This document shows, in pieces, positions 131 through 5,315 of a stretch of DNA of 56,130 bases. Under the pieces are notes generated by a model, which saw nothing but the letters and a program-made list of their open reading frames with translations, was not told the origin of the DNA and ran no database searches. The stretch is taken from contig JAZOSB010000032.1 of NCBI GenBank assembly GCA_045656865.1, positions 1-56,130 on the forward strand, in the 5' to 3' direction. Position 1 is the stretch's first letter. Every line of letters begins with the position of its first letter. The translations under genes and the position numbers were made by a program. The DNA comes from Clostridia bacterium (GTDB lineage: Bacteria; Bacillota; Clostridia; UMGS1883).

Positions 131-362
131 ACTCCCGTCCACAAAGGGACGAGAGTTCTCGCGGTACCACCCTTATTCAAGGCAATGATGCCTTGCACTT
201 TTACACATTAACGCAGTATCACGCTCCGCTTAACGCACATTGCTTTTCACGGAGAGCTCCCGTGCTGAAATTCAAAGAGGCACACTACAGGGAAGCTTTC
301 AGCCCGTGACTCCCCCTCTCTCGGAAGTGATATGCCAATTCTACTTACACACGTTCAACGCC
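124..362 (-). promoter_or_regulatory. T-box riboswitch, probable Phe (UUC) specifier; the regulated gene is off the left edge (pheST likely)
   Basis: Minus strand has AGUA, AGAGAG and GGGCUGAAA stem I motifs, GAA-u-UUC-A specifier loop (UUC = complement of 267-269), T-box AAGGGUGGUACCGCG (160-174), and terminator ACUCUCGUCC/GGACGGGAGU followed by a U-run. Confidence 0.88.
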
Positions 363-372
363 GTACTTAGTA

Positions 373-641: not shown

Positions 642-669
642 AAAAAAGACATCTTCGGATGTCTTTTTT
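642..669 (+). terminator. Intrinsic terminator after the tRNA
   Basis: AAAAAAGACATC-TTCG-GATGTCTTTTTT. Confidence 0.85.
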
Positions 670-670
670 C

Positions 671-844
671 AGTTATATTTGCCTTACGGCAAGTTATATT
701 GCTGTGCAGTGTTATTTGGCTTATACCAAGTGGTATTGTGCTTCGCACAGTTTAAAGGCAAATATAATAACACTGAAACCACGGGTTTCAATATCACTTT
801 TGATTTATCAAAAATATCACTCCAACAAAGGCAGGAATATAACT
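671..844. repeat. Modular palindromic element: four AGTKNTATT nonamers facing four complementary AATANMACT nonamers, with mini-hairpin spacers
   Basis: Nonamers at 671, 692, 708, 729 and complementary ones at 766, 790, 813, 836; hairpins TGCC/GGCA, GTGC/GCAC, GAAACC/GGTTTC and TTTGAT/ATCAAA lie between them. Confidence 0.75.
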
Positions 845-3024: not shown

Positions 3025-3053
3025 GTTATGCACGAAGAAAGGAATTGAATTTT

Positions 3054-5315
3054 ATGTTATGTACTCGCTGCAACAAAAATGTTGCTGTTATATTTGTAAC
3101 CCGTATGGAAGGCGGAAAAACCGTCAACGAAGGCTTGTGTATGCCCTGTGCAAGGGAGCTTGGCATTAATACAATGCAGCAGATGGCAGGCGGACTTGAT
3201 ATGGGTGATATGGAAAACTTAGAATCACAGATGATGGAAATGTTTGAAAATGAGGACAATGCTCCCGATGGCGGGGGAAACCCTCTTGCAAGCTTTTTTT
3301 CCAATATGTTCGGAGGTTTTCCTGCCTCTTCCCCCGAAAACGGAATCGAGAGTAGCGAAAAACCCGAGAAAAAGGATAAAGCAAAAAACAAGCCCGAGAA
3401 AAAGAAAAAGCTTCTTGATACCTACGGCACAAATCTGACTGCAAAAGCAAAAAGCGGTCAGGTGGATATGGTCGTGGGCCGCGACCGTGAAATAGAAAGG
3501 CTTGTACAGATACTTAACCGCCGTACAAAGAATAACCCTGCTCTTTTAGGTGAGCCTGGGGTTGGCAAAACAGCCATTGCAGAAGGGTTTGCCGAAAGAA
3601 TAGTAAGCGGTAATGTTCCCGAAAAGCTTCTTGACAAGGAGGTATATCTTCTTGACTTTACCGCAATTGTGGCAGGAACGCAATATCGCGGTCAGTTTGA
3701 AGCAAGGCTTAAAGGAATTATTGAAGAAACAAAAAAGCTTGGAAACATTATACTGGTAATTGATGAGCTTCATAATATTGTCGGTGCAGGAGATGCCGAG
3801 GGCGCTATGAGTGCCGCTAATATTTTAAAGCCTGCGCTTGCAAGAGGTGAAATTCAGGTAATAGGTGCAACCACACTTACCGAATACAGAAAATTCATTG
3901 AAAAGGATTCTGCTCTTGAAAGACGTTTCCAGACTGTTATAGTTGAAGAGCCGTCTCCCGAAGAAACCGTTGAGGTGCTTCGCGGAATAAAGGGCTATTA
4001 CGAAAATTATCACAAGGTTAAAATTTCAGATGAGGTCATAAATACTGCCGTTAATCTTTCAAGAAGATATATTACAGACAGATTTCTGCCCGACAAGGCA
4101 ATTGACCTTATTGACGAGGCAGGAAGCCGTGCAAACCTCAAAAATGCAATTCTTGTGCAGATAGCGCACACAGAAAAGGAGCTTGCCACACTTACAGCAC
4201 GGATAGAGGAAGAAAACACGCCCTCCGAAGAGGAAAATACCGAGCAGAATTATGAAAAGCTTGCGGAACTCAAAACCCGTGAATGTACTCTCCGTCAGGA
4301 GATTGATAACCTTAAAGAACAGCTTTCTGATGTAAGTCTTACTCCCGACGATATTGCATACGTAGTTGAGTCATGGACAAAAATCCCCGTACAGAGGATT
4401 ACTCAGGCAGAAACAGAAAGACTTCTCGGTCTTGAAGAAAGACTTCACAAGCGTATTATAGGGCAAAACGAAGCGGTAAGTGCAGTAAGCCGTGCAATAC
4501 GCAGAAACCGTGCGGCACTTTCCAAAAAGCTCCGTCCTGCAAGCTTCATTTTTGTAGGACCTACGGGCGTTGGTAAGACAGAGCTTGTAAAACAGCTTGC
4601 AACAGAGCTTTTTGACAGTGAGGATGCACTTATCCGTGTAGATATGACAGAATTTATGGAGAAGCATTCCGTTTCAAAACTGGTTGGCTCTCCTCCGGGA
4701 TATGTGGGCTATGATGATGCAGGTCAGCTTACCGAAAAGGTGAGAAGAAAGCCGTACTGTGTGGTGCTTTTTGATGAAATTGAAAAGGCACATCCCGATG
4801 TTCTTAACATTATGCTTCAGATACTTGATGACGGCAGAATAACCGACAGCCACGGCAAGGTGGTAAGCTTTGAAAACACTGTTATCGTTATGACAAGCAA
4901 TGCAGGAAGCGACTGGAAAGGAAGCGGCATCGGTTTTGCGGAGAGTATTTCCAAGCAGAACAAGGAAAAGGTTAACCGTGCACTTAAAGCCGTTTTCCGT
5001 CCCGAATTTCTTAACCGTGTTGACGAAATCATAGTTTTTGACGAGCTTAACCATAGCGAAATGAAGGAAATTCTTGAGCTTATGCTCTCTGAACTTTCGG
5101 AAATGCTTGAAAACAAGGGGATTGCTCTTTCCGTAACTGACGAGGTAAAAGAGCTGCTTGTAAATGATGCTGTACGTGAGCATCTTGGTGCAAGGCCTTT
5201 AAGAAGGCTTATCGGACGCAAGATTGAGGATAAGATTGCGGACATTATAATAAGTGGCTCTTATAAAAATGAAGTAACCATTTTGATGAAAGACGGCGAA
5301 ATTATTTGTGAGTAG
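3054..5315 (+). CDS. clpC: ATP-dependent Clp protease ATP-binding subunit (ClpC/ClpE type, N-terminal CxxC..CxxC Zn finger)
   Basis: Two Walker A motifs (GEPGVGKT, GPTGVGKT), DKAIDLIDEA, GSPPGYVGYD, RPEFLNRVDE, GARPLRR. Confidence 0.92.
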   Translation: MLCTRCNKNVAVIFVTRMEGGKTVNEGLCMPCARELGINTMQQMAGGLDMGDMENLESQMMEMFENEDNAPDGGGNPLASFFSNMFGGFPASSPENGIESSEKPEKKDKAKNKPEKKKKLLDTYGTNLTAKAKSGQVDMVVGRDREIERLVQILNRRTKNNPALLGEPGVGKTAIAEGFAERIVSGNVPEKLLDKEVYLLDFTAIVAGTQYRGQFEARLKGIIEETKKLGNIILVIDELHNIVGAGDAEGAMSAANILKPALARGEIQVIGATTLTEYRKFIEKDSALERRFQTVIVEEPSPEETVEVLRGIKGYYENYHKVKISDEVINTAVNLSRRYITDRFLPDKAIDLIDEAGSRANLKNAILVQIAHTEKELATLTARIEEENTPSEEENTEQNYEKLAELKTRECTLRQEIDNLKEQLSDVSLTPDDIAYVVESWTKIPVQRITQAETERLLGLEERLHKRIIGQNEAVSAVSRAIRRNRAALSKKLRPASFIFVGPTGVGKTELVKQLATELFDSEDALIRVDMTEFMEKHSVSKLVGSPPGYVGYDDAGQLTEKVRRKPYCVVLFDEIEKAHPDVLNIMLQILDDGRITDSHGKVVSFENTVIVMTSNAGSDWKGSGIGFAESISKQNKEKVNRALKAVFRPEFLNRVDEIIVFDELNHSEMKEILELMLSELSEMLENKGIALSVTDEVKELLVNDAVREHLGARPLRRLIGRKIEDKIADIIISGSYKNEVTILMKDGEIICE

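Follow-up and report, generated by a model that had tools for sequence, protein, structure and literature searches.

We analysed a stretch of 56,130 nucleotides, here called the window, from a Clostridia bacterium (GenBank assembly GCA_045656865.1, contig JAZOSB010000032.1, forward strand), in which a modular palindrome at positions 671-844 follows a tRNA-Leu gene. With moderate confidence, we interpret this palindrome as a gene-less copy of an insertion cassette that is based on the Rfam family Gut-1 (RF01706), the short boxes of which would be recognised by a protein of the family PF05635. What tells most, among the new findings, is that such arrays are linked to PF05635 genes: many related arrays at other loci are followed by a gene of this family, and the clades of the protein match the types of box exactly. 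It should be noted that the genome assembly (1.37 Mb in 54 contigs) is 88% complete.

A 240-bp insert with two inverted Gut-1 arrays

The three closest relatives (G031, G056 and G055), the flanks of which are 75-91% identical to those in the window, do not contain the 240 bp that follow tRNA-Leu here; in these genomes, the equivalent of a hairpin found at 882-923 comes directly after the tRNA. Homology with the three empty sites stops at the left copy of a 10-bp direct repeat (638-647). In G031, the matches to query positions 1-268 and 499-921 abut, and a bovine-gut DNA contig of a relative, in which 647 is joined to 905, represents an empty site as well. An earlier reading made from the sequence alone (the sequence-only reading) had named presence or absence at the orthologous tRNA-Leu locus as a check; at this locus, the insert is absent from the three relatives. 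The insert is composed of its own terminator, two arrays and a 32-nt tail. The terminator hairpin and T-run (648-669) are cassette-borne; the A-run (642-647) is part of the left direct repeat, and the left border is ambiguous to this extent. The features of the region are as follows.

495-523, + strand: promoter-like site upstream of tRNA-Leu (12/12 matches)
558-640, + strand: tRNA-Leu(AAG), CCA encoded (ARAGORN; Rfam tRNA 49 bits)
638-647, + strand: left copy of the 10-bp direct repeat CCATAAAAAA (tRNA CCA plus A-run)
642-669, + strand: intrinsic terminator (terminator scan, 12 pairs; inverted repeat)
648-887 (equally 638-877), + strand: 240-bp insert, missing from the closest relatives
670-741, + strand: left Gut-1 array, with boxes at 671, 692, 708 and 729 and hairpins at 680-691, 701-707 and 717-728; a fourth hairpin follows at 738-748
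673-685, + strand: closing stem P0, 5' strand, i.e., box 1 plus the 5' arm of hairpin 1 (13-nt inverted repeat, 100%)
755-767, + strand: closing stem P0, 3' strand, the segment after hairpin 4
762-845, - strand: right Gut-1 array, inverted, with boxes at 766, 790, 813 and 836 and hairpins at 775-789 and 799-812 (822-835 degenerate)
764-791, - strand: promoter-like site in the right array, TTGAAA-16-TATTAT after TG (10/12; consensus match only)
846-877, + strand: insert tail of 32 nt, resembling degenerate right-array units (direct repeats 71-73%)
878-887, + strand: right copy of the direct repeat CCATAAAAAA (repeat search)
882-923, no strand assigned: ancestral terminator-like 19-bp hairpin (inverted repeat of 19 nt, 95%)

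The tail has a homologous counterpart at another locus (L069), and the hairpin at 882-923 could act in both directions, because it is flanked by an A-run and a T-run. The promoter-like site at 764-791 reads toward the left array; five promoter-like sites were counted in the region, compared to 2.3 +/- 1.5 in shuffled sequences. The 240 bp could conceivably be ancestral and have been lost via recombination between the flanking repeats; however, a second, foreign terminator stands ahead of the retained native one, which argues for a gain.

Each half of the palindrome aligns to the full Gut-1 model (positions 1-77), 670-741 on the + strand with 40.0 bits (E 1.3e-6) and 762-845 on the - strand with 29.3 bits (E 6.7e-4), both below the curated gathering cut-off of 50 bits. 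In blastn, copies that pass the cut-off match the window unit, L024 at 85% identity (58.9 bits) and L001 at 76% (55 bits). The second copy in this genome, on contig C7 behind tRNA-Arg-CCT, scores 55.0 bits, above the cut-off; it has a near-identical terminator in front and a full left array, and its right array is reduced to the first unit. At this second locus, divergence from the relatives again begins directly after CCA, where the relatives have another terminator and a promoter, and the cassette replaces about 97 nt. The palindrome is thus a diverged member of Gut-1 in a new architectural and genomic context. The sequence-only reading had considered it an unannotated family, and this was only partly correct, since each half matches an Rfam entry; the inverted-pair architecture and the context are new.

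In the available text of Weinberg et al. 2010 (PMC2864571), the Gut-1 model consists of four conserved linkers with three variable hairpins between them; the family is listed there as "human gut only" and rated a likely RNA, though not as a cis-regulator or a riboswitch, and the same text proposes no function. The window halves share the four linkers and three hairpins, and in the available part of the supplement to that paper one sequence of the seed alignment begins like the window copy. The window boxes read GUKNUAU, compared to GUGAAAU in the consensus. Furthermore, what the available text presents as a single array, without context or function, is found here as an inverted pair with an extra closing stem; and compared to "human gut only", the window copy comes from a gut-bacterial metagenome-assembled genome (MAG), inside an insert behind a tRNA. 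Sequence related to the window copy was also found in ruminant-gut metagenome runs.

The palindrome has eight boxes of the form AGTKNTATT, four on the + strand (671, 692, 708 and 729) and four on the - strand (766, 790, 813 and 836), exactly where the sequence-only reading had placed its nonamers. They are 16-24 bp apart inside each array and 37 bp apart across the centre. The window contains 12 matches to AGTKNTATT, compared to 5.17 +/- 2.27 in shuffles, none of 100 of which reached 12; 8 of the 12 matches fall inside the 174 bases of 671-844. Pairs of boxes 7-16 nt apart occur at two loci in the genome, the palindrome and contig C7, and the genome-wide scan for such pairs gave 9 matches versus 1 for a reversed-pattern control. 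All four spacers that had been named as hairpins are found (680-691, 738-748, 775-789 and 799-812); the spacers 701-707 and 717-728 pair too, and the spacer 822-835, degenerate in the window copy, is a hairpin in relatives. The folding of 664-852 is stronger than that of shuffled sequences on both strands (z -5.07 and -4.81; none of 200 shuffles in either case). The array starts at C670, one base past the T-run of the tRNA-Leu terminator, in agreement with the proposed terminator-adjacent site. CRISPR arrays have direct repeats of about 23-50 nt and unique spacers of like length; with 9-nt boxes, 7-15-nt spacers and inverted halves, the palindrome is not of this kind, as had also been stated.

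Covarying hairpins and a closing stem

For tests of covariation, we used a MAFFT alignment of 23 copies that was fitted to no structure. The local hairpins are paired in 95.5% of cases, and their covariation of 0.224, compared to 0.116 in shuffled alignments, was matched by none of 500 shuffles, whereas slid controls were paired in at most 49%. The covariation of spacer stems, another check that had been suggested for the palindrome, is therefore supported. The alignment also reveals a closing stem, P0, that surrounds the first array and is absent from the Rfam Gut-1 model: the 11 pairs that were counted (673-683/757-767) are formed in 98.8% of cases in the 23 copies, with 20 double-change cells versus 7.2 in shuffles (0/500). 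P0 and hairpin 1 are mutually exclusive and compete. In a broader test of arrays that follow a T-run, at least 9 of 10 bases of P0 are complementary in 33/64 cases, compared to 78/1372 in a mismatched-locus control; this 10-nt test was used instead of a 12-nt one (24/106), which was too strict and reached loop bases. P0 is kept, together with covariation, in a GC-rich contig of a viral collection (L246).

Conversely, the long rod of facing nonamers that the sequence-only reading had envisaged can be drawn, but shows a covariation of 0.048 versus 0.045 in shuffles, a level that 129 of 500 shuffles reach. We rejected this rod as a selected structure: its variable box positions are unpaired in 11-16 of the 23 copies and do not covary, and among the facing nonamers only box 4 pairs well with the first right-hand box (96.5%). 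In the aligned copies, the left boxes are mostly GTTATAT and the right boxes mostly GTGATAT.

Of 248 unique spacers, 219 contain a perfect Watson-Crick stem that is 3 bp or longer. G-U pairs are nearly absent, both in the sense (10/1067) and in the antisense (20/1109) orientation, and are too few on either strand to decide which strand acts, so this approach was abandoned. Triloops are closed by 5'-C...G-3' in 131/146 cases, and on the box-sense strand 116/146 of them are TNC or TNT, compared to 7/146 that are GNA or ANA, a skew that is indicative of a strand-specific loop constraint. Contigs from RNA libraries cover 675-718, 741-800 and 752-800 at low depth; they derive from other loci or organisms and carry no information on strand or ends, and no such contig covers 857-963. 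The acting form may be RNA, single-stranded DNA or both: the loops are strand-specific, and the stems can pair on both strands.

Spread of the family and link to PF05635 genes

Of the 64 genomes of the bacterial family, 40 have Gut-1 matches, 30 of them above the cut-off, with up to 38 matches per genome; by genus, the positive genomes number 29/38, 9/10, 1/1 and 0/11, with 0/1 in each of three further genera. Pairs of a + and then a - array about 20 nt apart are seen at least 14 times among the 150 matches listed for the family. Among the loci collected, 24 others contain the window unit, in 26 matches of 76-88% identity, and with these further loci, in this genome and in relatives, a structured, dispersed repeat family is supported. 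The copies usually stand behind stable-RNA genes: in 16 of 30 loci (L001 and L004-L032), the array is preceded on its own strand by a tRNA that ends 31-41 nt before it and differs widely in identity between loci, and other copies follow signal recognition particle (SRP) RNA, 5S rRNA, the stop codon of a HIT-family gene, or other protein genes. The plasmid collection contained no match.

Matches above the cut-off were also detected in MAGs that bear the names Acutalibacteraceae, Ruminococcus sp. and Christensenellaceae, as well as in one IMG/VR contig and in two MAGs of the Akkermansia type, the hairpins of which are GC-rich. The Akkermansia-type contigs L121 and L126 and the IMG/VR contig L246 have arrays with GC-rich hairpins in hosts outside Clostridia, which may reflect transfer, binning error or old age. 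It should be noted that scans for three GTGAAAT boxes in genome and viral collections gave many unrelated matches, and that on recheck with Rfam 9/15 loci had Gut-1 above the cut-off.

The PF05635 gene follows an array pair in at least five loci (L077, L079, L080, L084b and L086), within about 60 nt and in the same orientation. The product of these long forms has 116 amino acids and matches PF05635 with 99 bits and TIGR02436 with 109 bits; it also matches PDB 2RLD, an entry with five chains (E 2.6e-30), and was not matched in PADLOC or PHROGs. In L077, a promoter-like site at 663-691 (+) overlaps the last box. The same layout is present in an Acutalibacteraceae MAG and, behind tRNA-Arg, in MT835815.1, an unverified "Bacteriophage sp." record from human faeces. 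Among the 64 genomes, 32 have both Gut-1 and PF05635, 8 Gut-1 only, 5 PF05635 only and 19 neither, a tally in which related genomes are not independent and MAGs are incomplete; in two of the five with PF05635 only, arrays of the GCTAAAT type are present that escape the Gut-1 model. Visual inspection of 30 PF05635 loci showed inverted arrays of short repeats that adjoin or surround the gene in 29 of them: 17 have hairpin-spaced boxes (six box types) and 12 have plain tandem heptamers flanking the gene; the remaining locus is unclear.

In a maximum-likelihood tree of these 30 proteins, each box type corresponds to one clade. The 14 box labels require 13 changes on the tree, the minimum possible, compared to a mean of 22.5 after shuffling (0/200 as low). 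At its deepest split, the tree divides into hairpin-spaced and plain-tandem types, and the clades cross genera. A limited search of the literature on PF05635 and TIGR02436 found no tie to Gut-1 or to tRNA-flanking repeats, and a similar one on Gut-1 RNA gave nothing related. As separate observations, PF05635 genes with plain tandem heptamers lie behind the same-looking aspartyl-tRNA-synthetase-like gene in four species (L093, L101, L103 and L111), with heptamers that differ between species pairs, and at L110 (G019:C17) two tRNA-Leu(AAG) genes flank a PF05635 cassette and one further gene.

Several observations concern mobility. Exact copies of the tRNA 3' end are found downstream in 9/45 loci, compared to 1/36 upstream and 1/45 on the opposite strand; five of the nine downstream copies are exactly 18 nt long and begin at tRNA position 59. 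Four of these five border a separate element of about 165 nt, placed between the terminator of the tRNA and a direct copy, 18-21 nt long, of the 3' end of that tRNA. The element opens with an inverted T-arm copy of the same tRNA, has a conserved internal hairpin and closes with a short hairpin module that is conserved as well; none of the Rfam families matches it at E <= 0.05. This element is seen at L069 (254-450), L072 (295-490), L102 (1001-1215), L034 and L081, and also upstream of arrays in L043, L044, L009 and L016. The same 3' module is found at the end of a long-form cassette in L117, followed by the 18-nt copy and the native terminator.

Other arrangements were noted as well. In G017, near-identical units of several hundred bases (L036, L037), each with a Gut-1 array and a second array of GCGATAT boxes, occupy several loci, which suggests recent spread or tandem amplification; in the same genome, tRNA-Glu and its Gut-1 array are tandemly repeated (L039, G017:C36). 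The terminator stem is extended by an inverted 13-nt copy of the tRNA-Val 3' end at L076 (G026:C83), and by inverted 4 nt of the 5S end at six 5S loci (L075, L079, L080, L083, L084 and L087). Two candidate "autonomous elements", with arrays 1-2.4 kb apart (G053:C103 and G015:C12), turned out to be pairs of convergent tRNA genes, each with its own array, and were rejected.

Explanations and comparison with known systems

According to the explanation that we prefer, the cassette would settle immediately downstream of the CCA end of a stable-RNA gene and bring its own intrinsic terminator, followed by two inverted arrays of four 9-nt boxes each, with short, almost purely Watson-Crick hairpins between the boxes and P0 around the first array. 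Full-length cassettes would continue with a promoter and the gene for the 116-aa PF05635/TIGR02436 four-helix-bundle protein. The boxes are predicted from these sequence comparisons to be specific recognition sites of that protein, with the hairpins as spacers, and each protein lineage would keep its own box sequence. The cassette is probably selfish. The window copy, in which there is no open reading frame (ORF), is most likely an orphan, because no PF05635 gene was found in this genome.

Several points weigh against this explanation. The search for PF05635 in this genome, 88% complete, gave no match, and seven other genomes of the 40 with Gut-1 have no match either. The correspondence between protein clades and box types might stem from linkage alone. 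No transposase, integrase or reverse transcriptase accompanies the cassette; the flanking repeats are of no fixed length (8-18 nt or more), and the replacement at the second locus of this genome is no simple insertion. The RNA evidence is patchy and comes from contigs alone. Finally, the architecture is kept across hosts of very different GC content, including the Akkermansia MAGs, which, together with the covarying stems, suggests a selected function and not a mere relic.

A wider reading, which we put forward tentatively as possible though improbable, is that Gut-1 arrays and PF05635 genes form an unrecognised class of small mobile cassettes that is kin to the intervening sequences (IVSs) of 23S rRNA and homes to the 3' ends of stable RNAs. 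In such a class, the protein, probably pentameric, would read four or five boxes spaced by hairpins, and the mature RNA 3' end or its gene would serve as the landmark for insertion, possibly with a nucleic-acid-templated step; this would account for the exact CCA junctions, the 18-nt copies of tRNA ends from position 59, and the inverted T-arm copies. In the available text of Warrier et al. 2016 (PMC4990558), the IVS of Coxiella is described as selfish; it has a terminal stem of 28 bp and an ORF for S23p, a homopentameric structure of which is cited there. As far as that text goes, the IVSs of Coxiella and Leptospira resemble the cassettes in being small, sporadic, linked to stable RNA and bounded by inverted repeats, and the likeness extends to the PF05635 four-helix-bundle gene in the long forms; however, those IVSs lie inside 23S helices and consist of one plain 28-bp stem that is cut by RNase III (PMC4990558). 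In contrast, the cassettes follow the 3' ends of tRNA, 5S and SRP genes (and some protein genes), come with a terminator and contain arrays in which boxes and hairpins form the modules. The window copy lies behind tRNA-Leu and not inside a 23S helix, and long-form relatives have the S23p-type ORF, which neither this copy nor this genome contains.

The PF05635-type protein and Avd of diversity-generating retroelements (DGRs) belong to the same fold family, according to the available text of PMC10053308, and the long-form protein is distantly similar to Avd in sequence (NF033474, E 8e-4 to 4e-3, far below the cut-off). Unlike DGRs, the cassettes have no nearby reverse transcriptase and no pair of template and variable repeats. 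The presence of reverse transcriptase (PF00078) does not track the arrays: it was found in 16/40 genomes with Gut-1 and in 11/24 without, i.e., there is no association.

Type III toxin-antitoxin systems combine an RNA repeat array with an adjoining gene for the protein that binds the array. The cassettes resemble them, as a short repeat array adjoins a small protein gene and a terminator is part of the unit. They differ in their order (terminator, arrays, promoter, gene), in repeats that are not identical tandem units, and in a protein without nuclease or defence match.

Among the rival explanations, it is unlikely, in our estimate, that the palindrome represents free-standing small RNA genes, i.e., two convergent Gut-1 small RNAs that are independent of PF05635 and act, e.g., as a sponge for an RNA-binding protein. 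Gut-1 is read as RNA by Rfam and in the available text of Weinberg et al. 2010 (PMC2864571), and the hairpins and P0 covary; in L020, L021 and L028 the array should be transcribed, because it lies between a stop codon and the terminator, and eight genomes have arrays without a PF05635 match. Array-like pieces also occur in metatranscriptome contigs of two studies, although DNA can occur in RNA libraries. On the other hand, most copies come after an intrinsic terminator and, in long forms, ahead of the next promoter; the scarcity of G-U pairs is unusual for a structured RNA, and PF05635 is closely tied to the arrays, both physically and in phylogeny.

We give a lower probability still to an operator array in double-stranded DNA, the boxes of which would bind a protein that controls one or more promoters at the right end and the window copy of which would be a leftover operator. 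The box spacing within arrays, the two-fold symmetric design, the almost purely Watson-Crick stems, and the promoter-like sites that overlap boxes (L077 663-691, +; window 791-764, -) would be expected under this model; however, binding to a duplex would explain neither hairpin spacers with compensatory changes, nor P0, nor the strand asymmetry of the loops.

Even more doubtful is a terminator or insulator that benefits the host, in which the stack of hairpins would stop read-through or protect the 3' ends of stable RNAs, as REP elements do in enterobacteria. It is consistent with the always cassette-borne terminator, the sites behind tRNA, 5S and SRP genes, the position of the window copy between convergent genes, and the strong folding on both strands, but it leaves the conserved, lineage-specific boxes and their tie to one protein family unexplained, and close relatives manage without the cassette.

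The single-stranded DNA substrate moved by an HUH transposase that the sequence-only reading had proposed, similar to repetitive extragenic palindromic (REP) sequences or bacterial interspersed mosaic elements (BIMEs) with their REP-associated tyrosine transposases (RAYTs) or IS200-type enzymes, is very improbable: the repeat is dispersed, hairpin-rich and close to terminators, on the strand opposite the boxes it has GNA-type triloops with C-G closure, and this genome has one match to the Y1 family PF01797, but the proposed association was not borne out, as PF01797, present in G000, G039 and G017, is absent from the high-copy genomes G053 (17 matches, 85% complete) and G015 (18 matches, 82% complete; incompleteness limits this test), the hairpin sequences differ within and between copies, and this genome has two loci. 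GNA triloops closed by C-G are unusually stable in DNA, and RAYTs recognise a conserved hairpin.

REP/BIME sequences and repeats that resemble miniature inverted-repeat transposable elements (MITEs), such as BOX or Correia elements, are short, dispersed, hairpin-forming intergenic repeats that often lie at the 3' ends of transcription units. The modular build and strain-variable presence are shared with the cassettes. Unlike them, the cassettes have no RAYT or transposase partner that we could find, and their boxes are lineage-specific and tied to a protein that is not a transposase. REP/BIME sequences repeat one conserved palindrome many times per genome, compared to varied hairpins at two loci here. 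MITEs end in terminal inverted repeats, duplicate a target of fixed length and depend on an autonomous partner; in contrast, the insert runs 22 nt on the left and 33-43 nt on the right beyond the arrays, the flanking repeat measures 10 bp at the window copy and 8-18 nt or more at other loci, and the long forms encode the PF05635 protein alone.

Around the window copy, a T-box leader (104.8 bits) at 142-367 (-) lies upstream of the tRNA-Leu promoter, and the gene that it would control is beyond the start of the window. On the other side, an ORF of 657 amino acids (977-2950, -) for a putative S-layer-homology (SLH) protein converges on the cassette, which thus stands between convergent genes, and is covered by RNA-library contigs at up to 80x word depth; an ORF of 756 amino acids (3045-5315, +), putatively ClpC-like, comes next. 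For the organism, the window copy adds at most a second terminator or insulator between tRNA-Leu and the SLH gene.

For the family, the consequences are broader. Gut-1 has been in Rfam since 2010 without organism, context or function, and PF05635/TIGR02436 is a large family of unknown function, known only from the IVSs of 23S rRNA and as a distant relative of DGR Avd. With Gut-1 as one half of an inverted module, these two orphan annotations become a single testable hypothesis of a protein and its boxes. A type of small cassette directed to the 3' flanks of tRNA genes without a known recombinase is also indicated. For annotation, the cassette accounts for a class of repeats that break contigs next to tRNA genes in gut MAGs.
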